Origin: Lachnoclostridium sp. An14
GTDB lineage: Bacteria > Bacillota > Clostridia > Lachnospirales > Lachnospiraceae
Direction: 5' to 3'
NCBI RefSeq assembly: GCF_002160755.1
Contig: NZ_NFLE01000013.1
Coordinates: forward strand, 11,906-75,905
Length of the DNA stretch: 64,000 nucleotides
Part shown: in pieces, positions 624 through 63,360 of the stretch
How the letters are laid out: each line of letters begins with the position of its first letter
Numbering within the stretch: position 1 is the first letter of the stretch
Program-made: the position numbers and the translations under genes
Notes under the pieces: model-generated
What the model saw: the letters and a program-made list of their open reading frames with translations, nothing else
The model's database searches: none
What the model was told of the DNA's origin: nothing

Positions 624-727
624 TTTATTTAACAGGAAAGAGCGTTTCCTGTTAAATAAAAATGTTTCGCAAGGAGGCGCGCTCCGCGCAGCATGGAAAT
701 GGATTTCTTTACGGCTGCGGCTCAGTC
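624..727. repeat. Intergenic palindromic repeat element, copy 1 (modules A+B)
   Basis: Perfect 14-bp hairpin TATTTAACAGGAAA/TTTCCTGTTAAATA, then …gcaaggaggcgcgctccgcgcag…ggctgcgg. Same modules recur at 15350, 24142, 43017, 54903, 55310, 57383(inv), 57965, 63252. Confidence 0.8.
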
Positions 728-832
728 CGAACGATATTTCCGGTGTATGGGAGATCTCGCCGGGGAGTGGACTTTTTCCAAATTCCAGCAAAATACTTCG
801 TAAAACGGAGATCAATGAGGAGGAAAACGATT

Positions 833-1684
833 ATGAAGAAATGGACAGCACTCACTTTAGCGGCAGTAATGGCAGCATCTATGGCAGGCTGTGGCGGCGG
901 CACGGACGCCGGGACGACGGCAGCTCCGGCAGCGGACACCACAGCGGCAGATACGGCAGCAGAGAGCACGGAGGCTGCGGCAGATGATACCGAGGCAGCA
1001 GACGCCGCATCTGATAAAGTTTATCAGATCGCAACGGATATTACTTTCAAGCCTTTCGAGTTTGAGAATGAGAACGGAGAGATGGTGGGAATCGACCTGG
1101 ATCTTTTAAAGGCAATCGCTGAGGATCAGGGTTTCACCTACGAGCTTCAGGTAGTAGGTTTTAACGCGGCAGTTATGGCTATGGAGACCGGCGCCGCTGA
1201 CGCGGTGATCGCGGGAATGTCCATCACTCCTGAGAGAGAGGAGTTATACGATTTCTCTGATCCCTACTTTGAGTCCGGCGTAGGCTGCGCAGTTCTTTCC
1301 ACCTCCGAGGCGACGGATTACAGCGATTTCGCAGGAATGCAGGTGGCTGCTAAGACCGGTACGGAGGGCTGCAAGTTTGCGGAGTCCATCGCAGAGGAGT
1401 ACGGCTTTACGGTAGTACAGTTCGACACCTCCGCAATGATGTATCAGGATGTAATGGCAGGAAACTCTGTAGCCTGCTTTGAGGACTACCCGGTTATGGG
1501 CTACGAGATCAGCCAGGGCATGGATCTGAAACTGTTAGATAAGCTGGAGTCTGCCAATAACTACGGCATCGCAGTGATGAAGGGCCAGAACGCGGAGCTG
1601 ATCGAGATGATCAACGCCGGCCTTGCGAACTTAAAAGAGAGCGGAAAGTACGACGAGATCATTGATACTTATATTAAGAAGTAA
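833..1684 (+). CDS. Polar amino-acid ABC transporter substrate-binding lipoprotein (Ala/Thr/Asp-rich linker after lipobox Cys)
   Basis: Start moved to ATG 833 (MKKWTALTLAAVMAASMAGCGG lipoprotein signal; RBS GAGGAGG upstream). The long ORF from 662 is an in-frame 5' extension over the repeat element. Type-2 SBP fold motifs; first gene of an SBP-permease-ATPase operon. Confidence 0.85.
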   Translation: MKKWTALTLAAVMAASMAGCGGGTDAGTTAAPAADTTAADTAAESTEAAADDTEAADAASDKVYQIATDITFKPFEFENENGEMVGIDLDLLKAIAEDQGFTYELQVVGFNAAVMAMETGAADAVIAGMSITPEREELYDFSDPYFESGVGCAVLSTSEATDYSDFAGMQVAAKTGTEGCKFAESIAEEYGFTVVQFDTSAMMYQDVMAGNSVACFEDYPVMGYEISQGMDLKLLDKLESANNYGIAVMKGQNAELIEMINAGLANLKESGKYDEIIDTYIKK

Positions 1685-1844
1685 TAAAAAGTGAATCTGA
1701 AGTCCGGCGGAGAGTTCGGGGGTACGGCCCCCGGACTTTCCGTGCGGTTTTCAAAAAATGGCCATGGGCAGCGGAGAGCGGAAACTGCGGATTTCGTTTT
1801 CCGGTGTTCACGGCAGAAAAACTGAGGAAAGCAGGTAAAGGACC

Positions 1845-2528
1845 ATGATACAGATCGCAGATATTCTGGCGAAGAATTTCCCTGTGCTGCTGGCGGCGCT
1901 GGGAGAGACTCTGAAACTGACGGTGGTAAGCTTATTTTTTGCCACCATCATCGGTGTGATTTTTGGATTGCTTAAGGTGTCTGGAAAGAAACCGCTGAAG
2001 ATCCTGGCAGATATTTACATCGACATTATCCGCGGCACGCCGCTGATGGTACAGACCATGATCATTTACTACGGCATCGGCCAGATGCTGCGTCCCATGG
2101 GATTTATGTGGGCGAACTACGGCGGCTCCTTTGCGGCGGCGGCAGTGACCCTGAGCCTGAACGCAGGCGCCTATATGGCGGAGATCATCCGCGGCGGAAT
2201 CGAGTCCGTAGATAAAGGACAGATGGAGGCGGCCAGAAGCCTGGGAATGTCCTATGCGAAATCCATGCAGAAGATCATTCTTCCCCAGGCGTTCCGGACG
2301 ATGCTCCCGTCCATTATCAACCAGTTTATCATCTCCCTGAAGGATACCTCCCTGGTATCTGTAATCGGAGTGTCCGAGCTTACGAAACGAGGAAATATCT
2401 TAACAGCGAATGCAGCGGCCCGCTCCATGGCAATCTGGGTGACGATCGCTCTGTTCTATCTGGTAATCTGCACCATTCTGTCCAGAGTGGCAAAAATCAT
2501 GGAAAGGCGGGTGTCTTATGGCAAATAA
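1845..2528 (+). CDS. Amino-acid ABC transporter permease (His/Gln/Glu polar amino acid family)
   Basis: 227 aa, multiple TM helices; EAA-like loop …[22 protein letters not shown]…; position between SBP and ATPase. Confidence 0.9.
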
Positions 2529-3249
2529 GATCGTGGTAAAGAACCTGAAGAAAACCTTTGGCCATCTTGAGGTTTTAAAGGATATTAATATGGAAGTGGA
2601 AGAAGGAGAGGTGGTCTGCCTCATCGGTCCCTCCGGATCGGGAAAGAGTACCTTTCTGCGCTGTCTGAACCGTCTGGAGGACATCACGGACGGCGTGGTA
2701 CTGGTGGATGGCCATGCCATGTCAGATAAAAAGATCAATTTAAATAAAATCCGGGAAAACATTGGAATGGTGTTTCAGCACTTCAATCTGTTTCCTCATC
2801 TGACGGTGCTGGATAATATCACCATCGCTCCGGTGGAGCTTAAGAAAATGACAAAGGCCGAGGCCAGGGACAAGGCCATGGAGCTTCTGGAAAAAGTAGG
2901 GCTGTCTGACAAGGCGTCCGCTTTCCCGGCCCAGCTTTCCGGCGGCCAGAAACAGCGTGTGGCCATTGCCAGGGCTCTCGCCATGAATCCGGACATCATG
3001 CTGTTTGACGAGCCCACCTCCGCTCTGGATCCGGAGATGGTGGGAGAGGTGCTGGAGGTAATGAAACAGCTGGCCGCGGACGGAATGACCATGGTGGTGG
3101 TGACCCATGAGATGGGCTTTGCCAGGGAAGTGGCGGACCGGGTAGTGTTTATGGACGGCGGTTATATTGTGGAGGAAGGCACCCCGGAGGAGGTATTCGG
3201 CCATCCCAAGGAGGAGCGGACCATCAGTTTCCTCAATAAGGTGTTGTAA
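2518..3249 (+). CDS. Amino-acid ABC transporter ATP-binding protein (GlnQ-like)
   Basis: Walker [10 protein letters not shown], signature [15 protein letters not shown], Walker [13 protein letters not shown]-loop; 243 aa; start overlaps the permease stop. Confidence 0.9.
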
Positions 3250-3533
3250 GCAGCGGGACGAGGGCTGGTAAGGTTGGGAAGTTCCGGAGCAATTTCGGAC
3301 ATAGGGGCGTTTCGCGGGACTCCCGTGAAAGCGCCTGTCCCGAAACCTGGTGTGATAAAGGAAAAAGGCACAAAACGTCAAACCGAAAAATCCGGTTCCC
3401 GTAAAAGGTTTCGTAAAAATTGCCGCTGTAAAAAGCTAAGGTAAAAAGCTAAAGCTAAAAAAATCCGGCTCCCGTAAAATTCTGCTTGCCAAATCCGGAT
3501 TTTATGGTATAATAAAAACTGTTCTTGAAACAG

Positions 3534-3604
3534 GCAGATGTAGTTCATCGGTAGAATATCAGCTTCCCAAGCTGAGGAGGCGGGTTCGATTCCCGTCATC
3601 TGCT
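3534..3604 (+). tRNA. tRNA-Gly (anticodon CCC)
   Basis: Cloverleaf by eye: acceptor GCAGATG/CATCTGC, D-arm GTTC…GAAT, anticodon stem TCAGC/GCTGA with loop TTCCCAA, T-arm GCGGG-TTCGATT-CCCGT, discriminator T, no encoded CCA. Promoter TTGCCA-17-TATAAT about 40 bp upstream. An antisense ORF with MTGIEPASS is the typical tRNA artefact. Confidence 0.85.
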
Positions 3605-3689
3605 TTCGAAATTATGAGAGGAACCCTTGAGCTATCAAGGGTTTTTTCTTCGTTTTACAGGAAGTTTTTGCCTTTTCCGGGTCTGTGGG

Positions 3690-4095
3690 AATGTCCGCAA
3701 GTCAGAGGGAATAGAGGAGATGTCTGCGAGCCAGAGGGAATCTTTGCAGACAAGAGGAAATCTCCGCAAGCCAGAGGGAATGCCGGCAAGTTAGAAGGGA
3801 CCTTCGCAAACCAGAGAGAATCTCCGTCAACCGGAGAAAGCCTCTGTAAATTAGTAGAAGGAGCCTCCGCAAGCCAGAGGGAACCTTCGCCAACCAGAGG
3901 AAACCTCCGCAAGCGAGAAGGAATCCCGCAAGCTGGAGTGAACCTCCGCAAATAAGAAGAAGACTCCGCCAGCCAGTGGGAATGCCAGCCAGCCAGAGGG
4001 AACCTTCGCCAGCCAGAAGGAATCCCGCAAGCTAGAGGGAACCTTCGCCAGCCAGAAGGAATGCCCGCAAGCCAGAGGGAACCTTCGCCAGCCCA
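3690..4095. repeat. Tandem array of ~19 degenerate 19-22 bp units (consensus ~CAAGCCAGAGGGAACCTTCGC) immediately downstream of tRNA-Gly
   Basis: Head-to-tail units with no spacers, more diverged near the tRNA and near-perfect towards 4095. All six frames give low-complexity translations. Confidence 0.8.
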
Positions 4096-4253
4096 TGCCC
4101 TCCCCCTTCGCCCCCTTCGCAGAAAAGCAGGAAAGAAAAGGCATCCTCCCTCCGCCCCCTCATCATCCCTACAAATTTCGCAGTACCCATTTGCTCTGCG
4201 GCATCCGTCGCAGCGTCAACCTCATACCTCAACCAAAGAAAGGAGGACAGCTC

Positions 4254-5945: not shown

Positions 5946-6147
5946 AAAATTTCCTTTAAAAGCGGCGCCTGCGCCCATTCCCCACAAGGTACAACCGGTC
6001 TTAAAGGCGGAACATTTCCCGTGGGCGGGCCGCAGGCCCTGTGCGCGGATTTCCGACTTTTGAGCCCGGTATCTTGCAAAACGAAAAAATTTATGCCATA
6101 ATCAGGTGGCATATGAACGGATAGAATACGAGATTTGGAGGCATTAC

Positions 6148-12307: not shown

Positions 12308-13366
12308 ATGGCTTACAGCAAAACTTTATTCGGCGAAATGCCGGACGGGCGTCAGGTATACGCCTACACTCTGGTAAACGGCCATGGGACGGAATGTACC
12401 TTCCTGGACCTGGGCGCCATCTGGAACCGGATGGTGGTGAAGGATAAAAACGGAAAGAGCCGGGATGTGATCCTGGGCTATGACCGGCCGGAGGACTATC
12501 TCCAGGACGATTCCTTCTTCGGGGCGATCGTGGGCAGAAATGCCAACCGCATCGCCGGCGGCCGCTTTACCTTGGAAGGAACAGAGTACCAGCTCACCGC
12601 CAACAACGGCCCCAACAATCTCCACAGCGGCCTGGATTTTTACCGGAACCGCCTTTGGGAGGCCCAGGCCGGAGCGGACGAGACGGGGACCTATGCCGAG
12701 TTCTCCCTCTGGAGTGAGGACGGCGACCAGGGATACCCCGGAAAGGCCAGAATCGAAGTGCGCTACACCCTGGGAGAGGATGACAGCGTCTCCATCTCCT
12801 ACACCATGGTGGCCACCAAAACCACAGTGGCCAACTTTACCAACCACGTGTATTTCAACCTGGCCGGACAGGAGACCGGGACCATTCTGGATCAGAAGGT
12901 GCGGATCCTGGCGGAACAGTTTACCCCCACGGACGCCACGTCCATCCCCACCGGGGAGATTCTTCCGGTGGAGGGAACTCCCATGGATTTCCGGGAGTTT
13001 AAGGAGATCGGACGGGAGATTGGCGCCAGTTATGACCAGCTGATCATGGCCAAAGGCTACGATCACAACTGGGTGCTGGACGGCTACGACGGCAGCCTGC
13101 GGCTGGTGGCGGAGGCGGTGGACGAAAAGACCGGCATCGGCGTGGAGGTCTACACGGACCTTCCCGGCGTGCAGTTCTACACCGGCAACTACATCGACGG
13201 CACCCGTCCCGGAAAGGGCGGGGCGAAGTACCAGGAGCGGGCGGGTTACTGCTTTGAGACCCAGTACTATCCCGACGCCGTCAATCACCCTCAGTTCCCG
13301 TCCCCCATTCTGCCGGAGGGGAAGGAATATCACACCGTCACGGTGTACAAGTTTACGGTTCGGTAA
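12308..13366 (+). CDS. galM: Aldose 1-epimerase (galactose mutarotase)
   Basis: 352 aa; mutarotase motifs (…NRIAGGRFTLEGTEYQLTANNGPNNLHSG…, …HVYFNL…, …GYCFETQYYPDA…). Confidence 0.85.
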   Translation: MAYSKTLFGEMPDGRQVYAYTLVNGHGTECTFLDLGAIWNRMVVKDKNGKSRDVILGYDRPEDYLQDDSFFGAIVGRNANRIAGGRFTLEGTEYQLTANNGPNNLHSGLDFYRNRLWEAQAGADETGTYAEFSLWSEDGDQGYPGKARIEVRYTLGEDDSVSISYTMVATKTTVANFTNHVYFNLAGQETGTILDQKVRILAEQFTPTDATSIPTGEILPVEGTPMDFREFKEIGREIGASYDQLIMAKGYDHNWVLDGYDGSLRLVAEAVDEKTGIGVEVYTDLPGVQFYTGNYIDGTRPGKGGAKYQERAGYCFETQYYPDAVNHPQFPSPILPEGKEYHTVTVYKFTVR

Positions 13367-13458
13367 ACCGGCCGTGCACCGGCGTGAGCGTGCACCAGCA
13401 ACGCACATTTAATACAATATTTAATAGAAGAAACAGCTTGCCCCAAAAGGGCAGAGTG

Positions 13459-13507: not shown

Positions 13508-13979
13508 TGATCCCGGGCTGCCAGGGGCAAAGCGCTGTTTATCCCTTCATTATTATAGGAAGTATTATAGGAAGTTTCACGTTTGGCAAAACGAAAGCCG
13601 GAAGCGGAAACGCGCTCCAGGCAGAGGAACACGGCTGCTGCCCAGAGTCTCTCGGCAGAAACGTACCACTTCCAGTCCACTGGCAACTGGAAAAAATACC
13701 CATTTTTACGGAGTGCAGCGGAAAATAGCCGCGCAGACTGTGAAAATCCCACAACGTGTGCAGGAAGAACAATAAAAACATCTGAAAATACCAATATTTT
13801 GAGATAAATACAAAATTGATACAAATTGTGAAAAACGAAATCGACACATCCCACCAATATTGTACAGAAAAACAAAATTGGTACAGTTTTGCTATGTACA
13901 AATATCAAATTGGTACTTATTTTCTCAAAAAAATTGGAATAAAAGTAAAAAAACATGGGCAGAAAATACAAACGCTGTA

Positions 13980-15349: not shown

Positions 15350-15482
15350 TCTTTGTTTAACAGGAAACTTCGTTTCCTGTTAAACAAGAATGCTCCGCAA
15401 GGAGGCACACTCCGCGCAAAGGAAAATGGCTGCTGGCGTAGCCGCGCTCCGGCGCGAGTGTGCGCCAAGCGCACACTGTTTT
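15350..15482. repeat. Intergenic palindromic repeat element, copy 2 (modules A+B+C, most complete)
   Basis: Hairpin GTTTAACAGGAAAC-ttcg-GTTTCCTGTTAAAC, then gctccgcaaggaggcacactccgcgcaaagg…gctggcgtagccgcgctccggcgcgagtgtgcgccaagcgcacactg. It sits between the SBP and ATPase genes within an operon. Confidence 0.85.
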
Positions 15483-15614: not shown

Positions 15615-17174
15615 ATGGCAGAATTAATTCTGGAGATGAACCACATAACCAAGAAGTTCTCCGGCGTCAAAGCTCTGGACGATGTGAACCTGAAGGTGGA
15701 AAAGGGAGAGATCCACGCGCTCTGCGGCGAGAACGGAGCGGGTAAATCCACGCTGATGAATGTTCTGTCCGGAGTGTACCCGGCGGGAACCTACGAGGGA
15801 GACATCGTCTACAAGGGCGAGACGTGTCACTTCAAAAACATCCGCGACAGTGAGGAAAAGGGAATCGTTATCATCCATCAGGAGCTGGCGTTAAGCCCGT
15901 ACCTGTCCATCGCCGAGAACGTGTTCATGGGCAACGAGCAGGTTTCCATGAAGGGCGTGATCGACTGGACGATGACGAAGAAGAAGGCAAAGGAAGCGCT
16001 GGAGAGCGTGGGCCTGGGTCACGAGAACGTGAACGCGCCGATCAATACCCTGGGCGTAGGAAAACAGCAGCTGATTGAGATCGCCAAGGCCATGGCAAAG
16101 AACGTGGATCTGCTGATCCTGGACGAGCCGACGGCGGCGTTAAACGACGAGGAGTCCGCTCACCTGCTGGAGCTGATGCTGGAGTTTAAGAAACGCGGCG
16201 TGACCTGTATCATTATTTCCCATAAGTTAAACGAGATCAGCTATGTGGCGGATTCCATCACCGTAATCCGTGACGGCCACACCATCGAGACCTTAAAGAA
16301 GGGCGTGGACGAGTTTACGGAGGACCGCATCATCAAGGGAATGGTTGGACGTGAGCTGAGCAACCGCTATCCGGAGAGGAAGGACTGCCCCATCGGAGAT
16401 GTGGTAATGGAAGTGAAGAACTGGACGGTATACCATCCGGAGATCGCCGACAAGAAGGTGATTGACAACATCAACATCAAAGTGCGGGCCGGAGAGGTGG
16501 TAGGCCTGGCAGGCCTGATGGGCGCCGGCCGTACCGAGTTTGCCATGAGCCTGTTTGGACACTCCTACGGCCAGAAGATTTCCGGCCAGGTGTTCATGCA
16601 CGGCAAGGAAGTGAGCACTAAGACGGTGCAGGATGCCATCAAGAACAAGATCGCCTACACCTCCGAGGACAGAAAGACCTACGGACTGGTGCTGATCGAC
16701 GACATCAAGCACAACACCACCATGGCCGCTCTGGGGACTTACTTCTCCAAGCACGGCATTGTGAATAAGAACGAGGAGATCCTGGCGGCTGAGGACTACA
16801 AGAAAAAGATGAACACCAAGGCTACCTCCATCAATCAGGCGGTAGGTTCTCTTTCCGGCGGAAACCAGCAGAAGGTGGTTCTGGCCAAGTGGATGGCCAC
16901 GCAGCCGGATGTCCTGATTCTGGATGAGCCTACGAGAGGTATCGACGTAGGCGCCAAGTACGAGATTTACTGTGTCGTCAATGAGCTGGCACAGTCGGGA
17001 CACGCGGTGATCATCATTTCCTCAGAGCTTCCGGAGCTGATCGGAACCTGTGACCGGGTGTACGTGATCAATGAAGGAAAGATCGCCGGCGAGGTGAGCC
17101 GGTCTGAGCTGACCCAGGAAAATGTTATGAAGACGATTATGGAACACAATAAGGAAAAGGGAGGAGAGCAGTAA
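15615..17174 (+). CDS. Sugar ABC transporter ATP-binding protein, two fused ABC domains (CUT2; AraG/RbsA/MglA-like)
   Basis: Two Walker A/signature/Walker B sets (GENGAGKST…LSGGNQQKV…). Start set at [15 protein letters not shown] (ATG 15615); the ORF is open upstream into the repeat element. Confidence 0.9.
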
Positions 17175-24061: not shown

Positions 24062-24097
24062 TGGGCTGAGAGATCCCATTCCTCTGTGAAATAGGAA

Positions 24098-24141
24098 TCC
24101 AGGCCGGACCTTTGGATTGAGGGTCCGGCCTGGATTTTTTG
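24098..24141 (+). terminator. Rho-independent terminator ending the ara cluster
   Basis: TCCAGGCCGGACC…GGTCCGGCCTGGA hairpin followed by TTTTTTG. Confidence 0.75.
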
Positions 24142-24265
24142 TGTCAGAAACTGTGTTCCCTATGACACAAAAGTCTCCGGCGGGAGGCGCACTCCGCGCA
24201 GAGGAATAAGGCTGCTGACGCAGCCGTGTTTCGGCGCGAGTGTGCGCCAAGCCGTACACTGTTTA
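24142..24265. repeat. Intergenic palindromic repeat element, copy 3 (modules A'+B+C)
   Basis: ctgtgttccctatgacacaaaag + tctccggcgggaggcgcactccgcgcagagg…gctgctgacgcagcc + gtgtttcggcgcgagtgtgcgccaagccgtacactg. It lies between convergent tal and MATE genes. Confidence 0.85.
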
Positions 24266-24269
24266 TGTG

Positions 24270-26140: not shown

Positions 26141-26255
26141 AAGAAAGCCTCCTTTTTTGTTTTTATAAGGTGAAAATGGTTCTGTTCTGATATTATAATA
26201 CGAAATCGTACTGATGATTATAATACGAAATGGGATTAAAGTCAACAGGGGAAAT

Positions 26256-26350
26256 AGGCGGATGAAGGCTGGAAGATAGACGGATGGAGGCGGAAAATGG
26301 GCGGACGGAGGCAGAAGATGGGCGAGCGGAGGCGGAAAATGGGCGGACGG
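26256..26350. repeat. 4-5 tandem copies of a 21-bp unit (GGCGGACGGAGGCGGAAAATG) in the marR / carD-like divergent intergenic region
   Basis: Direct head-to-tail repeats seen by eye; flanked by a short CTCC/GGAG-rich run. Confidence 0.7.
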
Positions 26351-26540
26351 AGACGGGAAATGCGCCGCGGTTTGGGATTGGAGAGGGGAAAAACCGGGGA
26401 AAGCACGAAAATTTTCACAAAAACTTCCCCGCCCTGTATGGGCAAACTTTCACAAATCGGGAAAAAACAGGAGATGGGGCCTTACACGGGGATCGGTTTT
26501 TGTATTAAAATAGAAGGAACAGGATAATCGTGTTTTAGAA

Positions 26541-42970: not shown

Positions 42971-42994
42971 AATTTAGGGGAGGCGTTGAGATAA

Positions 42995-43017
42995 AAGCCC
43001 TGACCCAGGGCTTTTTA
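42995..43017 (+). terminator. Rho-independent terminator after acpP
   Basis: AAGCCCTG-ACCC-AGGGCTT followed by TTTTA. Confidence 0.75.
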
Positions 43018-43216
43018 TGTTGTGTTGTAGAAAACAGCGTTCCCTATGGCACAACAGCCTCCGGCGCGGGTGTGCGCTGCTGCGCACACTTGTGCCATAG
43101 AAAACAGCATTCCTTATGGCACAACAGCCTCCGGCGGATGCACACTGCGCGCAAAGGGAAATAGCTGCTGACGCAGCTGCGCTCCGGCGCGGGTGTGCGC
43201 AGTAGCGCACACTTTT
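43017..43216. repeat. Intergenic palindromic repeat element, copy 4 (duplicated A' module + B + C; ~200 bp)
   Basis: …tagaaaacagcgttccctatggcacaacagcctccggcgcgggtgtgcgctgctgcgcacact / tgtgccatagaaaacagcattccttatggcacaacagcctccggcggatgcacactgcgcgcaaagggaaatagctgctgacgcagctgcgctccggcgcgggtgtgcgcagtagcgcacactt. Confidence 0.85.
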
Positions 43217-43272
43217 TAAAAGAAGGGCCGGGCCAAAGCGGGGCCGCGGCCCTTCGGGGAGAGAGGAGAATT

Positions 43273-47552: not shown

Positions 47553-47784
47553 AAGGGATACAAAATGGACATGACCGCTAACGCGGTCATCACAAATCAT
47601 GAAAGCCAGATGGCTCCACGCCTACGGCGTTCCCGCCATCTGCCGACGGTATTCGAAATCCGGGCTGCCGCCCTACTTTCTCATACCGTCTTGCCCGTCT
47701 GATGCCGATATATCTATGCGCGAGGGCGCGCCCATCTATATCGTCGCCATCCGGGGCTTTCATAGTAAATAGGAGGAAAAGTGT

Positions 47785-51085: not shown

Positions 51086-51351
51086 AAATTCATAGTTCGC
51101 GATGACGAGGAGGAGTAGTCGGACGGGAATCTACAGAGAGCTGCCGGTTGGTGCAAGGCAGTGAGGAAGGTCCGGTGAATATCACCTCAGAGCTTTCGGG
51201 CTGAAACGGTTTGCAGTAAGCCTGGACGGAGAACAGCCGTTATCCTGTTGCCCATTGTCAGATGGGAGCGAGTGGCCGTGCAAGCGGCAAAAAGAGTGGT
51301 ACCGCAGAGGTTTGAGCCTTTGTCTCTTGGAGTAGAGACAAGGGCTTTTTT
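51086..51351 (+). promoter_or_regulatory. T-box-like riboswitch leader (stem I with GA/K-turn motif and AGAGAG box; T-box-like AGAGUGGUACCGCAG; intrinsic terminator)
   Basis: …GCGATGACGAGGAGGAGTAG… (GA motif) and …CAGAGAGC… (AG box). AAAAAGAGTGGTACCGCAGAGG (51291-51310) matches the T-box consensus AGGGUGGNACCGCG at 11 of 14 positions. Terminator GCCTTTGTCTC…GAGACAAGGGC + TTTTTTG (51315-51351). The next gene (BASS transporter) starts ~260 nt downstream, which is unusually far. Confidence 0.5.
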
Positions 51352-51610
51352 GTTTCCTGTGAAACAAAACCGCATTTCCGGATTTCCTCCAATCCTGGAA
51401 ACGCGGCGTTTCCAGGAGGAGGGAAACAGCCATTCCTTTCGCTGCGGAACGGTGTCTGAGGGCAGAGATGCCGGCAGACCGGACGAGAGGTTGTCAGGAC
51501 GCCCCGGATCAGGTTCCGGGGCGGGTAAAAAACCTGGGTCAGCCGCAGCCGCCCGCCCGGCCCTCGCCGGTCGCGGAGATGGAGAATGATAGGGAAAAGG
51601 AGAAACTGTT

Positions 51611-53981: not shown

Positions 53982-54911
53982 ATGACAGCAGTAATCACAG
54001 AAAAAATCATGGAGATGGTATTTTTGCTGGCGGTGGGAGCCGCCGTGCTGAAAACTGGGGTGATCGACGGGGCAGCGAATAAGAAACTGTCCAACTTTCT
54101 CCTTATGGTGGTTTCCCCGGCCCTGATCATCAGCTCCTATCAGATGGAGTTTGAGCCCCGTCTGCTCACGGAGCTGCTGCTCACCGTTGCCCTGTCGGCG
54201 GTGAGTTTCGCGGCCATCATTTTTCTGTGCCATTTCATTCTCCCGCCCCGTCCGGGGTTAGACAGCCCGGTGGAGAAGATGGCGGTGATTTACTCCAACT
54301 GCGGCTTTATCGGCATTCCCCTGATCAACGGCATCCTGGGGGCGGAAGGGGTGTTCTGCATGACCGCCTACACCACCGTCTTCAACGTGCTGGTGTGGAC
54401 CCACGGGGTGATCCTTATGAGCGGAGGCGGGGAGCACGTGCGGGTTCGGGATATGTGGAGAAACCTGGTCACTCCGGCGGTGATCGCCGTGGTGACCGGC
54501 CTGTGCCTGTTTCTGACCGGGACCAGGCTGCCGGAGGTGGTGGCAAACCCCATTTCCAGCGTGGGAAATATGAATACCCCCATCGCCATGATCGTGGCGG
54601 GGGCGAACCTGGCCCAGGGCAACCTTCTGGACAGCTTAAGGAAGGTCCGGGTGTACTACATCAGCTTTTTAAAACTTCTGGTGGCCCCGGCGGTGACGGC
54701 TCTGCTGTTATTTGTGCTTTCCCCCAGCTTTCCCGTGTCCCTGACCATTTTCATCGCCGCCGCCTGCCCGGCCGGCGCCATGGGCACCATGTTTGCCCTC
54801 CGCTACAACCGGGACAGCGGCTACGCGTCGGAGCTCTTTGCCGTCTCCACCCTGCTGTCCATGGTGACCATCCCCCTGCTCTCCGCGGCGGTGCTGCCGT
54901 TTTTTGTTTAA
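53982..54911 (+). CDS. AEC-family (auxin efflux carrier / Mem_trans) transporter
   Basis: 309 aa, 8-10 TM helices, typical AEC N- and C-terminal repeat halves. Its stop codon TAA (54909-54911) lies inside hairpin A of repeat copy 5. Confidence 0.85.
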   Translation: MTAVITEKIMEMVFLLAVGAAVLKTGVIDGAANKKLSNFLLMVVSPALIISSYQMEFEPRLLTELLLTVALSAVSFAAIIFLCHFILPPRPGLDSPVEKMAVIYSNCGFIGIPLINGILGAEGVFCMTAYTTVFNVLVWTHGVILMSGGGEHVRVRDMWRNLVTPAVIAVVTGLCLFLTGTRLPEVVANPISSVGNMNTPIAMIVAGANLAQGNLLDSLRKVRVYYISFLKLLVAPAVTALLLFVLSPSFPVSLTIFIAAACPAGAMGTMFALRYNRDSGYASELFAVSTLLSMVTIPLLSAAVLPFFV

Positions 54912-54985
54912 CAGGAAACAGTGCTTCCTGTTAAACAAAAATGCTCCGCAAGGAGGCGCACTCCGCGCCAAGCGCGCACTTTTTT
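54903..54985. repeat. Intergenic palindromic repeat element, copy 5 (A + truncated B/C)
   Basis: GTTTAACAGGAAACagtgCTTCCTGTTAAAC + aaaaatgctccgcaaggaggcgcactccgcgccaagcgcgcactttttta. Confidence 0.8.
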
Positions 54986-55059: not shown

Positions 55060-55314
55060 TGAACAGAAAACCCAGAAAAGCGAAGATGGGGACAGTACAG
55101 AGCAGGCAGCCATGCAGAGAGAGGCGCGTTTGGTGCGAGCGCCTTATGGAGGCAGTTTTTGGAAAACCACCCCGGAGCGTCCCTTAATCGGGAACGGTGA
55201 TTCCGTTATCATCAGAAATGAAGTGGTCCGGCGCGCGGCGCGCGGCGGGCAAGCAGGGTGGAACCGCGATGAAAGATCGTCCCTTGCCGTAGGCGCTACG
55301 GCAGGGGACTTTTT
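55060..55314 (+). promoter_or_regulatory. T-box riboswitch leader of thrS (probable Thr/ACC specifier)
   Basis: AGAGAG box; candidate specifier region …GAAAACCACC…; T-box AGGGTGGAACCGCG (55254-55268); terminator GTCCCTTGCCGTAG…CTACGGCAGGGGAC + TTTTT (55279-55314). thrS is T-box-regulated in Firmicutes generally. Confidence 0.75.
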
Positions 55315-55370
55315 ATTATTTAACAGGGAACTGCGTTTCCCGTGACACGAGAGCCTCTGGCGGGATGCGC
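55310..55370. repeat. Intergenic palindromic repeat element, copy 6 (A/A' hybrid + partial B), inside the thrS 5' UTR after the T-box terminator
   Basis: ttatttaacagggaactgcgtttcccgtgacacgagagcctctggcgggatgcgcacattg. Confidence 0.7.
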
Positions 55371-55409
55371 ACATTGTTGCTTTATTTGTTTTCAGAGAGG
55401 AGAGATACC

Positions 55410-57382: not shown

Positions 57383-57496
57383 GCATCCGCCGGAGGCTTT
57401 TGTGCTATAGGGAACGCGGTTTCCAATGACATGAACGTGTGCGCAGCTGCGCATACCCACGTCAGCAGCTATCTTCCTCTGCGCGGAGCGCGAAAA
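57383..57496. repeat. Intergenic palindromic repeat element, copy 7 (inverted orientation, mosaic B-C-A'-B)
   Basis: The reverse complement reads cgcgctccgcgcagaggaagatagctgctgacg…tgcgcagctgcgcacacg…ccctatagcacaaaagcctccggcggatgcacgc, matching copies 3, 4 and 8. Confidence 0.75.
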
Positions 57497-57497
57497 A

Positions 57498-57526
57498 ACG
57501 CCCATGAATAAAATGGGCGTTTTTGC
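57498..57526. terminator. Bidirectional-looking intrinsic terminator (thrS 3' side)
   Basis: AAAAAACGCCCAT-gaataaa-ATGGGCGTTTTTG: an 8-bp GC-rich stem flanked by an A-run 5' and a T-run 3'. Confidence 0.7.
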
Positions 57527-57577
57527 ATATCCTAAGGGTGTTTCAGACAATATTCATCACCGAAGGAGGAATGTGCG

Positions 57578-57892: not shown

Positions 57893-57964
57893 GAGACTGG
57901 AAAGCAATAGGACGAAAAATCAGGAAAGCGGGGCTGTTTCGCGGATTGCTGCGGGGCGGCTCCG

Positions 57965-58100
57965 TTTTGTCATGTCATAATAGGAAAAAGCGTCCCCCTA
58001 TGACACAAAAGCCTCCGGCGGGAGGCGCATTCCGCAGGGAGGAAACTGGCCGCTGCCGCAGCCGCGCTCCGGCGCGCGTGTGCGCTGCTGCGCACACTTT
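57965..58100. repeat. Intergenic palindromic repeat element, copy 8 (A'+B+C)
   Basis: catgtcataataggaaaaagcgtcccctatgacacaaaag + cctccggcgggaggcgcattccgcagggaggaaactggccgctgccgcagcc + gcgctccggcgcgcgtgtgcgctgctgcgcacactttttg. Confidence 0.85.
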
Positions 58101-58304
58101 TTGTGTTTTCCGGGCGCGGAAGGGCTGTTGGAAAAAGAAAAAGGGGACGGCGTCGCGGCCGTTTCCGGGCGGGGGCCGCTATCTGTTGGAAATTTGATAA
58201 AATTTTCTGATTTTTGTGATGGGTCACAGTGAAATCCGGTACACAAATGGAGTAGAATAAAGTATAATCAGAATAAAGCATAAATGCGGGAAGGGGGTAA
58301 GAGG

Positions 58305-59135: not shown

Positions 59136-59168
59136 GGCGCGGATACGAGGGAGAAGGAAGGAGACGGC

Positions 59169-60293
59169 ATGGCGTTTGCGGGATATGCCCAGGACTTTGT
59201 GGAGGCCACTTCCAAGCTGGTGAAGGGAAGAACCATCAATATCATGGACCGGAGAGGCTGCATCGTCGCCTCCACGGAGAAGGAGCGGATCGGCACCTTC
59301 CATGCGGGAGCCTACGAGGTGCTCCAGACGGGGGAGCCGGTGCTGATCTCCGAGGAAAATGTGGAACGCTACCCGGGAGCCAAAAAGGGATACAACCTGC
59401 CCATCTGGAACGGGGACCGGATGGAAGGGGTGATCGGCATTTTCGGAAATCCGGAGGAGGTGGAGGACATCGCGAACCTCCTTCGGGTCTACGTCACCCA
59501 GTATTTTAAGACCCGCACCAGCGCCAGGCGGGAGCGCCTGGAGACGGAGGTACGCCAGCAGATTCTCCTCCGCCTTCTCTCCGGAGAGGAGGCAGAGGAG
59601 GGGATGGACTGGGAAATGTTGGGGGTGCGGCTCCGTTACCCGGCCCGGGTGATGGCGGTGCGCTCCGGCCAGTACCGGCGGGAGACCAGCTCCTATCCCA
59701 GAATTGAAAAGCTGATGTTAGAAAATGCCTTGCTGCGGCCGGAGCGGGATCTTTACGGAATGGTGGGGAACTGCTATATCGCCCTGGTATCCGGCCTTAC
59801 TCAGGAGCGGCTGCCAGCCTATCTGGAAAGCCTGCGGCTGTTTCTGGAGACCAGGGGATTTAAGGAAGTGCGGATCGCCCTGGGAGAGGAATGCGCCGGA
59901 AAGGAACAGGTGCCCATTTCTTATAAGGAAGCAACGGCTCTCTTAAAAGACCGGGATGCAGGAATGGTGTCCTCCATCAGCGACCCCGGCTGCCGGATGC
60001 GGTACTACAAGGCCGTGCTGGCCGGCGGGGAGGCGGAGGCGTTTTTAAACCGGCTCCAGCAGCGGGCCCTGGCCGACATGGACCGGGAAAGCCTGTTTCA
60101 GTGCCTGGACACGGCAAAGGCCTACTACGGCTGGGACCGAAGCGTCCAGAAGGCGGCGCAGCAGCTCCACATCCACAAGAACACGCTGCTGTACCGCATG
60201 GGACGGCTGTATAAATGTCTGGGGCTGGAGGAGGAAGGGGATTACACAAAAGAGTTTTTTATCCGGCTGCTGATTGTGCGGCTGGAGAGATAG
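59169..60293 (+). CDS. CdaR/SdaR-family sugar-diacid regulator (N-terminal diacid-recognition domain, C-terminal PucR-type HTH)
   Basis: …GRTINIMDRRGCIVASTEKERIGTFHAGAYEVL…GYNLPIWNGDRMEGVIGIFGNPEEV… is colinear with the CdaR Diacid_rec domain. C-terminal …HIHKNTLLYRMGRLYKCLG… is an HTH_30. Confidence 0.85.
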   Translation: MAFAGYAQDFVEATSKLVKGRTINIMDRRGCIVASTEKERIGTFHAGAYEVLQTGEPVLISEENVERYPGAKKGYNLPIWNGDRMEGVIGIFGNPEEVEDIANLLRVYVTQYFKTRTSARRERLETEVRQQILLRLLSGEEAEEGMDWEMLGVRLRYPARVMAVRSGQYRRETSSYPRIEKLMLENALLRPERDLYGMVGNCYIALVSGLTQERLPAYLESLRLFLETRGFKEVRIALGEECAGKEQVPISYKEATALLKDRDAGMVSSISDPGCRMRYYKAVLAGGEAEAFLNRLQQRALADMDRESLFQCLDTAKAYYGWDRSVQKAAQQLHIHKNTLLYRMGRLYKCLGLEEEGDYTKEFFIRLLIVRLER

Positions 60294-60311
60294 AAAAAGG
60301 AGGTAGAGAGT

Positions 60312-61658
60312 ATGTCAGGAGCTTTTATGTTTGCGGTGATTATCCTATCGGTGGTGGCTATGGTGCTTGCCATCTCCAAGTGGAACCAGCACCCGTTTCT
60401 GGTGCTGACCATCATTGCGGTCGTGGTGGGCCTGCTGTGCGGAATGGACACAGAGACGGTGATCACCACGGTGAAAAACGGATTCGGTAATATTTTAGCC
60501 AGCATCGGCATTGTGATCCTGTGCGGCACCATTATCGGAACGGTGTTAGAGAAAACGGGCGCGGCCCTCACCATGGCCAACAGCATTCTGAAGGTGGTGG
60601 GAAAGAAAAACAGCGTGCTCACCATGGGCCTCACCGGCTATGTGACCGGCATTCCCGTGTTCTGTGATTCCGGTTTCGTTATTTTAAGCCCCATTTCCAG
60701 GGCCCTCGCCAGCCAGTCCAACATTTCTCTGGCAGTGATGGCCACAGCCCTGTCCGGCGGCCTGTACGCCACCCACTGTCTCGTTCCGCCCACTCCCGGC
60801 CCCATCGCCATGGCCGGAACCCTGGAGGCGGATCTGGGACTGACCATTTTGATCGGCCTGATTATTTCCATCCCGGCTACGGCGGTAGCCATCCTGTACG
60901 CGAAAAAGGTGTCTGCCACCGTACAGATCGACGCCAACCCGGAGTACACCGTGGAGGAGCTGCAGGCCAAATACGGAAAGCTTCCGGGAGTGCTCCACAG
61001 CTTTTCCCCCATCCTGCTGCCCATTATCCTCATCGCCTTTAAGTCCGTGGGAGACTTCCCCAGCAATCCTCTGGGCACCGGGATGTTAAAGACGGTGGTA
61101 TCCTTTATCGGAAACCCGGTGATCGCCCTGTTGATCGGCGTATACCTTTCCTTCACCCTGATCCCGAAGGAGGAGAAGAAAAACACCTTAAAATGGGTGG
61201 GAGAGGGCGTCACCAACTCCGCCGGCATTCTTGCCATCACCGGAGCGGGCGGTTCCTTCGGAGCCATTCTTCAGGCTCTGCCCATCGCGGATCAGCTCAC
61301 CGGTATGCTGGGCAATGTGGGCCCGGTGGCAGGCATTTTAGTGGCCTTTGCCATCGCCTCCTGCTTAAAGCTGGCCATGGGCGCGTCCACCGTTGCCATG
61401 ATCACCACCTCCGCCATGGTGGCTCCCATGATGGCCGGCCTGGGGCTGACCTCGGACATCGCCAAGGTGCTGATGATTATGGCCATCGGCGCAGGCTCCA
61501 TGACAGCCTCCCACGCCAACGACTCCTATTTCTGGGTAGTATCCCAGTTCTCCGACATGAACACCTCCCAGGCCTATAAGTGCCAGACCGGCATGACGGC
61601 TGTGATGGGAATTACCACGATTATTGTGGTGACAGCGCTGGCGTTTTTCTTCGCGTAA
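60312..61658 (+). CDS. GntP-family permease (gluconate/glycerate/diacid:H+ symporter)
   Basis: 448 aa, 12-13 TM helices, GntP-like N-terminus and central amphipathic loop; adjacent to CdaR. Confidence 0.9.
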   Translation: MSGAFMFAVIILSVVAMVLAISKWNQHPFLVLTIIAVVVGLLCGMDTETVITTVKNGFGNILASIGIVILCGTIIGTVLEKTGAALTMANSILKVVGKKNSVLTMGLTGYVTGIPVFCDSGFVILSPISRALASQSNISLAVMATALSGGLYATHCLVPPTPGPIAMAGTLEADLGLTILIGLIISIPATAVAILYAKKVSATVQIDANPEYTVEELQAKYGKLPGVLHSFSPILLPIILIAFKSVGDFPSNPLGTGMLKTVVSFIGNPVIALLIGVYLSFTLIPKEEKKNTLKWVGEGVTNSAGILAITGAGGSFGAILQALPIADQLTGMLGNVGPVAGILVAFAIASCLKLAMGASTVAMITTSAMVAPMMAGLGLTSDIAKVLMIMAIGAGSMTASHANDSYFWVVSQFSDMNTSQAYKCQTGMTAVMGITTIIVVTALAFFFA

Positions 61659-61768
61659 GCGGTATGTGAAAGGGGCGGTCCCAGGCGGGCCGCCCTATGT
61701 TTCTGTGCGGACGCGCTGTCATAAAAAAGGTCACAAGGGTGACAAAAAATATAATCTGGAAAAAATAG

Positions 61769-61997
61769 TTGACAACCAGGGCGGCATATGCTATCATAAC
61801 AAAAGTTGTGAGAACGACTGACAGGAAAGCAGGTATCCGCCTCACCCTGGCACGAGCAAGTGACCTGGGTTCATATCGCAAGCACCCCGCGGGAAAGCTG
61901 ATAAAAGGCTTTGCAGGGAAATGGGAATGGCTCTGAAAGGAGAATGTTTGCGGCACAGACGACGGCGGATGGGATGTTTTTTCCCATCTGTTTTTTT
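61769..61997 (+). promoter_or_regulatory. infC-rpmI-rplT promoter and L20-leader-like 5' UTR with attenuator terminator
   Basis: TTGACA (61769) -17- TATCAT (61792). A ~190-nt structured leader ends in the hairpin GATGGGA-tgtttttt-TCCCATC + TGTTTTTTT (61968-61997), immediately upstream of the infC RBS. Confidence 0.5.
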
Positions 61998-62025
61998 GTC
62001 CAATTCACTTTGGAGGTGCACGGCT

Positions 62026-62532
62026 ATTAGCGATTTAATGATTAACGAGCAGATTCGCGACAAAGAGGTCCGTCTGATCGGAGAGAATGGGGAGCAGCTG
62101 GGGATCATGTCCGCGAAGGAGGCCTACAAGATGGCTCAGGACGCGGAGCTGGATCTGGTAAAGATCGCCCCGACGGCAAAGCCGCCTGTATGCAAGATCA
62201 TCGACTACGGAAAGTATTGCTACGAGCAGGCGAGAAAAGAAAAGGAAGCCAAGAAGAAACAGAAGGTCATCGAGGTGAAGGAGGTTCGCTTATCTCCCAA
62301 CATCGACACCAATGATCTGAACACCAAGACCAGCGCGGCCAGAAAGTTCCTGGAGAAGGGCAACAAAGTAAAGGTCACCCTGCGTTTCAGAGGCCGTGAG
62401 ATGGCGCATATGTCAAAGTCCAAGTACATTCTGGACGATTTCGCGGAGAGCTTATCCGACATCGCTGTCATCGACAAGCCGTCCAAGGTGGAGGGACGGA
62501 CTATGGTCATGTTTTTAACTGCAAAGCGTTAA
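62026..62532 (+). CDS. infC: Translation initiation factor IF-3, probable ATT (AUU) start codon
   Basis: …INEQIRDKEVRLIGENGEQLGIMSAKEAYKMAQDAELDLVKIAPTAKPPVCKIIDYGKY… RBS GGAGGTG is 7 nt upstream of ATT 62026. The next in-frame ATG is at 62038 (M of MINEQ). The long ORF from 61921 runs through the attenuator and is not credible. Confidence 0.9.
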   Translation: MSDLMINEQIRDKEVRLIGENGEQLGIMSAKEAYKMAQDAELDLVKIAPTAKPPVCKIIDYGKYCYEQARKEKEAKKKQKVIEVKEVRLSPNIDTNDLNTKTSAARKFLEKGNKVKVTLRFRGREMAHMSKSKYILDDFAESLSDIAVIDKPSKVEGRTMVMFLTAKR

Positions 62533-62563
62533 AAAATAGACAACTATCAAGGAGGAAAATACA

Positions 62564-62761
62564 ATGCCGAAATTAAAAACAAGCAGAGCTGCTGCAAAGC
62601 GTTTCAAAGTAACGGGAACAGGAAAGTTAGTAAGAAATAAGGCTTACAAATCTCACATCTTAACTAAGAAGTCCACAAAGAGAAAGAGAAATCTTAGAAA
62701 AGATATTATTACCGACGCTACCAACGCAAAGGTAATGAAGAAGATTTTACCGTATCTGTAA
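62564..62761 (+). CDS. rpmI: 50S ribosomal protein L35
   Basis: [21 protein letters not shown]…; 65 aa. Confidence 0.95.
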
Positions 62762-62795
62762 GGATTTTTGAAATTAAGAAGGAGGAAATTGACCG

Positions 62796-63152
62796 ATGGC
62801 AAGAGTAAAAGGCGGTTTAAACGCAAAGAAGAAACACAATAGAATCTTGAAGATGGCGAAGGGCTACAGAGGCGCCCGTTCCAAACAGTACCGGATCGCA
62901 AAGCAGTCCGTAATGAGAGCTCTGACCAGCTCCTATGCTGGACGTAAGGAGAGAAAGAGACAGTTCAGACAGCTGTGGATCGCCCGTATCAACGCGGCTG
63001 CCCGCATCAACGGCTTATCCTACAGCAAGTTCATGTACGGCTTAAAGCAGGCCGGCGTGGAGATGAACAGAAAGATCCTTTCTGACATGGCCATCAACGA
63101 CGCAGAGGGCTTTGCAAAATTAGCTGAGCTGGCAAAATCCAAGCTGGCTTAA
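62796..63152 (+). CDS. rplT: 50S ribosomal protein L20
   Basis: [29 protein letters not shown]…; 118 aa. Confidence 0.95.
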
Positions 63153-63199
63153 GGAAACCCGGCCCATAGTGCGACGGAAACGAACATCAGAAATAAAGA

Positions 63200-63251
63200 C
63201 TGCTGCAGACAGAAGAACCCGCGAAGGGGGCTCTGGCTGCGGCAGTTTTTT
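63200..63251 (+). terminator. Probable intrinsic terminator after rplT
   Basis: CTGCTGCAG…CTGCGGCAG stem (one G-U) followed by TTTTTTG; large loop. Confidence 0.45.
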
Positions 63252-63360
63252 GTATTTAACAGGAAACTGCGCTCCCTGCAGCACAAAAAGCCCCCAGCGG
63301 GAAACGCACTCTCCGCAAAGGAAACCGGCCGCTGGCGCAGCCGCGCTCCGGCGGGCCGCC
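63252..63360. repeat. Intergenic palindromic repeat element, copy 9 (A variant + B + partial C)
   Basis: gtatttaacaggaaactgcgctccctgcagcacaaaaag + cccccagcgggaaacgcactctccgcaaaggaaaccggccgctggcgcagcc + gcgctccggcgggccgcc. Confidence 0.8.

Follow-up and report, generated by a model that had tools for sequence, protein, structure and literature searches.

Repeat sites in the window

We analyzed a 64-kb stretch of the genome of Lachnoclostridium sp. An14 (the window, to which all window coordinates refer), in which an initial annotation had reported a mosaic of palindromic intergenic repeats at nine sites. The results showed that each of these sites holds a member of one repeat family, that the full unit of the family is a non-coding sequence of about 130 nucleotides (nt) with six hairpins (P1 to P6) between two T-runs, and that most copies abut the 3' base of a terminator-like hairpin in a fixed orientation, with the T-tract common to both. 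This adjacency to terminators is the most distinctive feature of the repeat and was missed by the initial annotation. We consider it probable that the repeat is a non-coding, non-autonomous mobile element that targets terminators, is moved in trans, and has spread, in some lineages up to the present, through the Lachnospiraceae.

The 14-mer GTTTAACAGGAAAC, taken from the hairpin that had been named A, occurred 10 times in the window when up to two mismatches were allowed, in comparison to 0.38 occurrences expected from shuffled sequences. Repeat finding returned direct families (D1, D2, D5 and D8) and inverted pairs (I1-I18) at exactly the reported sites, a profile hidden Markov model (HMM) built from four full copies gave 12 significant segments, and a broader HMM gave 10 separate sites. 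In total the window holds at least 10 copies or remnants, with three or four more relics beyond the nine reported sites, and four of the copies (2, 3, 4b and 8) are full units. The copies and relics are as follows (E, expectation value; UTR, untranslated region).

621 to 702, plus strand: copy 1, with T-run, P1, P2 and P3, then degenerate (E=1.6e-13); starts in the T-run of a hairpin resembling a terminator (about 603-626); flanked by a fragment of a Pyr_redox_2 gene and by an SBP_bac_3 gene
13368 to 13410, plus strand: weak relic resembling P5-P6 (GTGCACCGGCGTGAGCGTGCACC..GCACAT; E=0.11), directly 3' of the stop codon of the open reading frame (ORF) 12308-13366
13545 to 13641, plus strand: degenerate copy with the P1 left arm duplicated (ATTATAGGAAGT twice) and remnants of P3-P4 (E=6.8e-5)
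15350 to 15482, plus strand: copy 2, full unit P1-P6 with T-run (E=7e-39), without a strong upstream hairpin; between a Peripla_BP_4 binding-protein gene and an ATP-binding cassette (ABC) ATPase gene of one transporter operon
24133 to 24266, plus strand: copy 3, full unit (E=1e-40); begins in the T-run of a strong terminator (24095-24137), between convergent transaldolase (plus) and MatE (minus) genes
43017 to 43091, plus strand: copy 4a, short form in which P1 is fused to P5/P6; after the acpP terminator (42993-43015)
43089 to 43219, plus strand: copy 4b, full unit (E=2e-38), in tandem behind copy 4a, whose P6 and T-run form its upstream hairpin
51346 to 51373, plus strand: relic, a mini-palindrome TTTTTTGTTTCCTGTGAAACAAAA formed by the outer P1 arms, immediately following the first T-box leader's terminator; not significant alone
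54900 to 54978, plus strand: copy 5, P1-P3 joined to a P6 remnant, equal to a full unit minus 48 nt internally
55312 to 55372, plus strand: copy 6, limited to P1, P2 and the beginning of P3; immediately 3' of the thrS T-box terminator (55279-55309) and 38 nt 5' of the thrS start codon
57381 to 57492, minus strand: copy 7, P3/P4/P6 of one unit and then P1-P2 of the next; adjoins the bidirectional thrS terminator (57495-57525) on its A-run side
57969 to 58104, plus strand: copy 8, full unit (E=1e-38); after a terminator-like hairpin downstream of a DUF1540 gene
63247 to 63353, plus strand: copy 9, P1-P5 without P6 (E=5e-18); after the rplT terminator, upstream of the opp operon promoter

The contexts given in the initial annotation were borne out, namely a position between convergent genes for copy 3, inside an operon for copy 2, after the thrS T-box terminator for copy 6, and at the stop codon of the AEC transporter gene for copy 5. 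In the last case, the TTTTTTGTTTAA of the copy provides the AEC/Mem_trans gene with its final three codons (FFV) and its stop codon, while the AEC proteins of sister species have equal length and end in PILS* or PLLG*, not PFFV*, with the divergence beginning exactly at TTTTTTGTTTAA. The 5' T-run of copy 5 appears to come with the element.

Structure and decay of the unit

The full unit measures 127 to 140 nt and is read as T-run, P1 to P5, the GC-rich hairpin P6 and a second T-run. P1 is a long AT-rich hairpin of 14-18 bp, in which the outer stem varies and the apex, ATAGGAAA..TCCTAT (ATAGGA/TCCTAT), is conserved; P2 is CTCC-N4-GGAG; P3 is GCGC-ACTNC-GCGC and is followed by the purine-rich linker AAGGAA; P4 is GGCTGC-TGNC-GCAGCC; and P5 is GCGC-TCCG-GCGC. 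The core holding P3, P4 and P5 is GC-rich and nearly invariant, although the near-invariance of P3 and P5 was partly imposed by the search patterns described below. P6 is a GC-rich hairpin of 9-11 bp followed by Ts which resembles an intrinsic terminator, and it was classed as terminator-like by a consensus scan in copies 2, 3, 4b, 5 and 8. Its stem is swapped wholesale among subfamilies, with at least four versions (GTGTGCGC, GAGTCCGGC, GAGTTTCGC and GAATGTGCC, all of them paired), and the subfamily 3' tails include TTTTTT and TCTTTGTTC.

A small protein gene was considered, since AAGGAA-N-ATGG resembles a ribosome-binding site with a start codon, and was rejected: the ATG is absent from copies 3, 4b, 8 and 9, the covarying changes in P4 would be non-synonymous, and the unit has no ORF.

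The initial annotation had interpreted the sites as combinations of four independent modules. The apparent mosaic is instead made of segments of one unit of about 130 nt, which decays by internal deletion, by truncation and by tandem repetition, and the modules called A and A' are both P1 in covarying sequence variants. Comparison of strains made this visible directly. Copy 5 lacks 48 nt that are kept by five other strains of the same species, and the short form that had been read as A' followed by C (copy 4a) is the exact product of a deletion between two CTCCGGCG octamers, located in P2 and P5. At the 4a and 4b site, strain L215 carries a single short unit and 123 nt fewer, so that the number of units is polymorphic between strains; two tandem units do exist there in the window, as the reported duplication of copy 4 implied, but they are not made of independent modules. 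Likewise, the inversion reported at 57383 was found on the minus strand, with the correction that the site holds the 3' part of one unit and the 5' part of the next. Arrays of tandem units that recur about every 126 nt were also observed in four other loci (L063, L014, L025 and L098), in which the upstream hairpin is the P6 of the preceding unit. A rule that P6 is always lost in 5' UTRs was also tried; it fits copies 1, 6 and 9 and the copies of L092 and L093, and is contradicted by L030, which carries a full copy.

Several variants of the unit were noted. The P1 loop is widened in some copies from 4 nt to 10-55 nt of unrelated sequence between ATAGGAA and TTCCTAT (L060:5440-5520, L048, L026, L032, L019, L049 from a CAOKPU metagenome-assembled genome (MAG), and several metagenome copies), and P1-like half sites (ATCATAGGA...) were found after the 3' T-run of other copies; the P1 apex itself may be a recombination or insertion point. 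Two different genomes (L003:7740-7840 and L024:5555-5597) share an extra insert of about 45-100 nt (TTGCTGAGTGCCAGTGGCACTCGTTT..GCAACGACCGA..) between P2 and P3, which suggests a subfamily with an additional hairpin. Within the window, 18 tandem copies of a 20-nt unit, AGCCAGAGGGAACCTCCGCA, lie at 3729-4093 (and 3645-3670) between tRNA-Gly and a gene for a GtrII-type glucosyltransferase. The unit length is not divisible by three, CTCCGCAAG+CCAGAGGGAA looks like the 5' half of P2 fused to the CAGAGGAA found after P3, and a P1-left-arm-like TTTTACAGGAAG stands after the tRNA terminator; from these resemblances, the array may be a rearranged, minisatellite-bearing copy of the repeat family. A separate array of five tandem copies of a purine-rich 21-nt unit, AAATGGGCGGACGGAGGCGGA, occupies 26252-26362 in the spacer between divergent MarR-like and CarD-like genes.

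Distribution in genomes and metagenomes

To collect copies from outside the window, two patterns were used: a pattern of 21 specified bases from P4-P5, run on species-representative genomes, and an independent pattern from P2-P3, run on metagenomes, whose sample is hence not selected on P4. The genome scan returned at least 80 loci, mostly from Lachnospiraceae, and the hosts among the matches listed were Hungatella, Faecalicatena, Ventrimonas, Cuneatibacter MAGs, strain M18-1, JLR.KK009 and mouse isolates. A few GC-rich actinobacterial and proteobacterial pattern matches were without the element by HMM search and are presumably due to chance. The metagenome scan returned at least 120 loci, mostly from the gut. 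Six unannotated gut contigs deposited as 'Bacteriophage sp.' carry the repeat, and a tandem copy in which P4 and P6 have covaried adjoins MobC/relaxase genes on a plasmid that was deposited under Clostridium perfringens; we count this plasmid-borne copy as evidence of horizontal routes for the family. From the genome loci, 55 full-length copies of 127-140 nt (4 from the window and 51 from other genomes) were aligned end to end, and the metagenomes yielded 93 full-length copies, of which 85 were distinct, so that about 150 distinct full-length copies were collected overall.

The claim of a dispersed palindromic intergenic family is well supported by these numbers, but the estimated density of about one copy per 7 kb holds only for the window (10 sites in 64 kb). 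The density is uneven, with about one extra site per 190 kb in the flanks of copies elsewhere and no copy in 44 kb of the sister species. The high local density is the single observation in favor of a local duplication or an assembly artefact confined to the window. We regard such an origin as practically out of the question, as nine independent metagenome assemblies of the species carry these same copies, related copies are present in dozens of genomes and in more than 100 metagenome contigs and are widespread in Lachnospiraceae, and the window copies are only 74-79% identical to one another.

As a side observation, copies adjoin rimP-nusA at six or seven loci, which come from different metagenomes, and pheS at six (L157, L184 and related loci), and these recurrences may be old shared insertions or repeatedly used sites.

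At gathering thresholds, Rfam 15 returned for the whole window only two T-box leaders (51093-51330, upstream of an SBF-family transporter gene, and 55074-55287, upstream of thrS), a Clostridiales-1 RNA (RF01699, 107.6 bits; 47600-47762, minus strand, between smc and ftsY) and a tRNA, none of which is the repeat. Permissive scans of copies 8 and 2 on both strands gave matches at chance level only, the best being 29.5 bits to a plant microRNA hairpin with a threshold of 90, and the core sequence of the repeat was not found in the literature searched. In agreement with the initial annotation, the family is real and, as far as Rfam 15 and this literature show, undescribed.

Adjacency to terminator hairpins

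To quantify the relation between copies and terminators, we scored structures of -10 kcal/mol or lower within the 38 nt 5' of a copy and used T-runs as controls. Such a structure was present upstream of 75% of the 73 copies with an intact 5' end, in comparison to 12% of control T-runs and 21% of random positions. For the metagenome sample, the foot of a strong hairpin was found no more than 3 nt from the T-run in 61 of 89 copies, in comparison to 10% of controls. The T-run of a copy is usually the T-tract of the strong upstream hairpin. Within the window, copies 1, 3, 4a, 6, 7 (on the minus strand of the bidirectional terminator), 8 and 9 abut a terminator hairpin, and copy 2 does not. Because the upstream hairpin in tandem arrays is the P6 of the previous unit, the 3' end of the unit itself behaves like a target.

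A second group of positions lies within 5' UTRs, where copies follow T-box terminators (copy 6 and the 51346 relic of the window, L030, L012, L092 and L093). These positions are not neutral and are hard to explain by neutral survival alone, which bears on the alternative that insertion is untargeted and that selection lets copies survive only downstream of genes, so that the link with terminators would be a survivorship effect. The enrichment of SPRITE, RUP, BOX and insertion sequence (IS) elements between convergent genes has been explained in this way (PMC3049150). Moreover, a different and unrelated repeat (TTTCRTGGTTCGTGGTGTCYGCGTTAGCGGGCACGGAGGTTTGCGCGATACGCYCGGCAAGCGGCCGCCA) is found in the sister species L090 downstream of the DUF1540 gene and of rplT (12440-12530 and 15640-15730), just after the hairpin in each case; post-terminator positions in the genus thus seem to attract more than one repeat family, as a survivorship effect would also allow. 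Nevertheless, the junction is precise, since the hairpin feet counted above lie at most 3 nt from the T-run leading into P1 and are not scattered over the spacer, and the orientation is fixed relative to the hairpin and T-run even at a bidirectional terminator (copy 7). Together with the T-box positions, these observations make untargeted insertion followed by selection an improbable explanation.

Gain, loss and recent spread

The copies were compared across related species. The threonyl-tRNA synthetase (ThrRS) encoded in the window is 100% identical to that of Lachnoclostridium sp. An14. The sister species L090, whose ThrRS is 95% identical, carries the same genes and intact terminators and has no copy at any of five orthologous sites, while L092 (ThrRS 93%) and L093 (87%) are without four of the five copies and have only a partial P1-P2 copy after the thrS T-box. 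Copies 7 and 9 are absent from L090, L092 and L093, and copy 8 is absent from L090 and L092.

A cultured mouse isolate, CAJTEM, carries seven copies at six loci on five contigs which are 96-100% identical, in comparison to the 74-79% among the window copies, and have unrelated flanks (49% identity). Because near-identical copies with unrelated flanks are dispersed in one genome, the repeat has been amplifying recently in some lineages. At a site orthologous to a young insertion, a relative of CAJTEM (L225:3395-3445) has as its terminator a P1-like hairpin, CCTGATAGGAAAGGTGTTCTTTTCTATCAGG, followed by TCTTTT (CCTGATAGGAAA..TTTCTATCAGG), which may be a solo P1 remnant or a coincidence.

Compensatory changes and the role of the hairpins

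Pairing was tested by anchor-based comparison and by arm swapping between copies, as a MAFFT alignment had misplaced the 3' arm of P1. The results showed that the pairing of P1, P4 and P6 is maintained through many compensatory changes, while P3 and P5 hardly vary and are uninformative on pairing; the hairpin named A in the initial annotation corresponds to P1. For the outer stem of P1, up to four or five pair types occur per position, such as CG 56, AT 26 and TA 24 at one position and TA 61, AT 26, GC 14 and CG 10 at another. The corresponding counts were CG 91 and TA 14, and TA 111 and CG 22, for P4 (metagenome sample), and AT 84 and TA 43, and CG 84 and GC 44, for P6. The arms of P1 paired with -15.1 kcal/mol in real copies in comparison to -7.9 kcal/mol in chimeras made across copies (p=7e-35), and those of P6 with -12.6 in comparison to -8.1 kcal/mol (p=2e-14); the arm-swap test for P4 gave p=0.003.

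Stems maintained in this manner are also what would be expected of an RNA element selected by the host, that is, a back-up terminator, a 3'-end stabilizer like the repetitive extragenic palindrome (REP) in malE-malF, or a small RNA (sRNA) which is derived from a 3' UTR or sponges a protein, with spread being secondary. The terminator-like P6 with its T-run fits such a role, as does the position of copy 2 at the junction of the binding-protein and ATPase genes of an ABC operon, a classic place for stabilizing or attenuating hairpins, and transcription has been reported for bcr1 and for BOX (PMC3184786; PMC3049150). On the other hand, most copies stand just downstream of a strong terminator, so that little transcription is expected; copy 7 is antisense to the only transcript able to cover it; no plus-strand excess of G:U pairs and no conserved promoter were found in the copies; the orthologous sites in the sister species are empty, without replacement by the same family; and copies decay freely by deletion. 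A primary role as a host-selected RNA is thus unlikely in our judgment. Since the majority of copies stand behind a terminator and probably see little transcription, the hairpins would more likely serve mobilization, in which single strands fold, than a function as RNA.

Ends of the unit and the mobilizing process

A number of observations weigh against a mobile element that targets terminators. About 25-30% of the copies, copy 2 included, have no strong upstream hairpin, and only 70% of the copies are co-oriented with the upstream gene, as judged from crude ORF calls. The full copy of L030, with P6 and six Ts, lies in a 5' UTR after a T-box, which speaks against P6 being an efficient terminator. 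In the source species, the copies examined are old: nine contigs of this species (98-100% identical, from independent metagenome assemblies) cover the region of copies 5 to 9 and all carry them, and these copies are fixed there without sign of current mobility. An exact empty site of a recent insertion was not obtained through the CAJTEM flanking protein, whose closest relatives are 82-84% identical with unalignable spacers; the T-runs may belong to the element or to the target. Plus- and minus-strand folds and wobble counts (47 G:U in comparison to 60 A:C in total, which slightly favors the minus strand overall and the plus strand in P5/P6) gave no consistent strand bias and do not discriminate a role as RNA from one as DNA. 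No terminal inverted repeats were found among about 135 aligned copies when the 5' end (T-run and AT-rich P1) was compared with the 3' end (P6 and T-run); only P1 is palindromic within itself. TTTNT flanks both sides, but its variable base was the same on the two sides in 33% of 63 copies, where 34% is expected, so that the target-site duplication suggested for examination by the initial annotation was not found in copy-specific form; a duplication made only of Ts would be compatible with these flanks. The REP-associated tyrosine transposase (RAYT) or IS200 TnpA suggested as a partner was not found either, since tblastn searches with IS200 TnpA and Escherichia coli RAYT queries gave no Y1 match in the 1.9 Mb around copies. 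No recurrent transposase family was present among the 1,138 ORFs of these neighborhoods, to which the transposase searches were directed rather than to whole genomes, and no longer element bounded by P1 arms and carrying a transposase was found in the searches.

Split elements enclosing ORFs were likewise searched for and none was found. The families that did recur near copies were MatE, ABC ATPases, LysR, response regulators, RimP, NusA and PheS. In strain L087 (14100-16011, corresponding to about window 61676), an IS with a DDE_Tnp_1/DUF772 transposase lies inside the terminator-like hairpin downstream of gntP; it was considered as an autonomous partner and rejected, as its end (GCTGTTGCAAAAGTAGATGATCATCTACC...) is unrelated to the repeat family.

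The lack of inverted termini, of target duplication and of a partner enzyme in these searches is what would be expected if the repeat spread without any transposase, through template switching or short-homology recombination at T-tracts. In such a course, a nascent strand stalled at a hairpin and T-run would switch to the T-run before a copy elsewhere, copy as far as the hairpin and T-run of that copy, and switch back. The unit has a T-run at either side and its end is a hairpin with a T-run, tandem arrays exist, and the orientation rule would follow automatically. This is purely a model, and we know of no precedent for it in a bacterial repeat family; it leaves the pairing of P1-P5 and the nearly invariant core unexplained, and the dispersed, almost identical copies of one genome point to a dedicated process that works efficiently. 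For these reasons, spread by template switching or short-homology recombination seems a rather remote explanation of the family as a whole.

Proposed mechanism and significance

In the reading that we prefer, a mobile element directed to terminators, a new copy would insert in one orientation at the 3' foot of a terminator hairpin and share its T-tract, and the insertion machinery, acting in trans, would recognize the hairpin together with the T-tract. P6 and its T-run would imitate the target, so that termination would be preserved after insertion and the 3' end of the unit could receive the next copy, giving rise to tandem arrays. Old copies decay by truncation and by deletion between short internal direct repeats, which produces the apparent mosaic. 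The hairpins might be kept because the mobilizing machinery needs a folded single-stranded nucleic acid, because only hairpin-rich and terminator-compatible copies are harmless, or for both reasons. Side effects on neighboring genes are likely under this model and could include extra termination, protection of the 3' end of an upstream mRNA (copy 2), new 3' coding ends (copy 5) and added structure in a 5' UTR (copy 6).

A more specific form of this proposal, which we offer only tentatively, is that of a terminator-homing mini-element, a 130-nt non-coding DNA which would recognize the folded terminator hairpin and T-tract, probably as single-stranded DNA, insert in a fixed orientation and restore a terminator with its 3' end. 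It might be mobilized by an unrecognized, possibly host-encoded enzyme conserved across Lachnospiraceae, or by transposase-free template switching. If this were true, the host would hardly notice insertions homing to terminators and every copy would be a new target, and the repeat would be the first small non-autonomous element shown to follow group IIC introns in its target logic.

Lachnospiraceae rank with the most abundant bacteria of the gut, and the annotation of their non-coding DNA is poor. The repeat is worth annotating, as it reaches one site per 6 kb, abuts terminators, alters 3' coding ends, sits in T-box 5' UTRs and breaks short-read assemblies. An HMM or a covariance model could be built from the roughly 150 copies, and annotated copies would improve the prediction of terminators and sRNAs in Lachnospiraceae genomes. 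The deletion and tandem-number polymorphisms are also usable markers for strain typing. Finally, if the association with terminator T-tracts reflects targeting, the question arises of which enzyme reads the terminator hairpin.

Comparison with known repeat families

The initial annotation had called the family similar to REP, BOX and transposable elements of the miniature inverted-repeat type (MITEs). The comparison with BOX is apt, while the defining features of REP/RAYT systems and of classical MITEs were not found. REPs are single palindromes of 20-40 nt with a GTAG or CGTC tag, often arranged as inverted pairs, with a cognate Y1 transposase. The repeat shares with REPs and with bacterial interspersed mosaic elements (BIMEs) that it is palindromic and extragenic, that it is found at gene ends and within operons (as in malE-malF), that it forms apparent mosaics as BIMEs do, and that roles in mRNA stabilization and termination have been proposed. 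The tag, the single short palindrome, the inverted pairs and, in the neighborhoods of copies, the Y1 transposase were not found for the repeat, and membership in REP/REPIN was rejected because the unit measures about 130 nt with six hairpins and has no conserved GTAG or CGTC tag at a hairpin foot. A DDE-derived MITE was rejected because inverted termini, a copy-specific target duplication and a full-length IS with the same ends were all absent from the copies and neighborhoods searched. A palindrome-associated transposable element (PATE) derived from IS200/IS605, which would have similar subterminal imperfect hairpins left and right for one TnpA to recognize, was rejected because P1 and P6 share neither sequence nor shape and the P6 stem changes among subfamilies. 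An integron attC site was also considered, since GTTTAAC/GTTAAAC in the P1 variant of the window fits the RYYYAAC/GTTRRRY cores, but other P1 variants do not.

Group IIC introns are the one well-documented mobile class that lies directly downstream of terminator motifs, made of an inverted repeat and then Ts, in a fixed orientation (PMC1702495). These introns measure about 2 kb, act as ribozymes and code for a reverse transcriptase, whereas the repeat measures 130 nt and has no ORF. No group II intron model in Rfam matches it even at E<=10, and the post-terminator position is the sole common trait, so that a group IIC intron or a derivative of one was rejected.

For bcr1 and the group A BCR repeats, work is reportedly due to Okstad (2004), Klevan (2007) and Kristoffersen (2011). 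According to the summaries consulted, bcr1 of the Bacillus cereus group is about 155 bp long, is distributed in a non-conserved manner between related strains, and has independent stem-loops kept by compensatory changes, a T-rich TTTAT border motif and no known transposase (PMC3184786, PMC6542083). It is flanked by 5-bp direct repeats, whereas the two TTTNT ends of the repeat match no more often than by chance; its host clade and sequence are different, and adjacency to terminators is not described for it in PMC3184786 and PMC6542083 as consulted. Assignment to bcr1 group A was rejected as no copy-specific TTTAT repeat was found in the copies and the hosts are Lachnospiraceae, not the B. cereus group.

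SPRITE and BOX of the pneumococcus are non-coding, hairpin-rich interspersed repeats of 100-200 nt from Bacillota (PMC3049150). SPRITE has a terminator-like hairpin with a T-rich tract, termini consisting only of AAAA/TTTT, no demonstrable target duplication and no matching IS, and lies near the 3' ends of genes, while the modules present vary in BOX; transposition is rare for both, and most copies are fixed within the species (PMC3049150), as the copies in our source species are. The comparison was made by architecture and composition; a relationship in sequence was not seen, nor would one be expected, and several differences were noted: SPRITE has 28% GC, whereas the repeat is GC-rich with six hairpins; BOX varies by the number of its boxB modules, whereas the repeat varies by deletions of one unit; SPRITE and BOX do not extend beyond S. 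pneumoniae and S. mitis, whereas the repeat occurs in many genera; and abutment to pre-existing terminator hairpins is seen for the repeat and is not reported for SPRITE or BOX. In general, the closest analogues, SPRITE/BOX and bcr1, work alike without being relatives, and the repeat is a family of a familiar kind rather than a new type of system.

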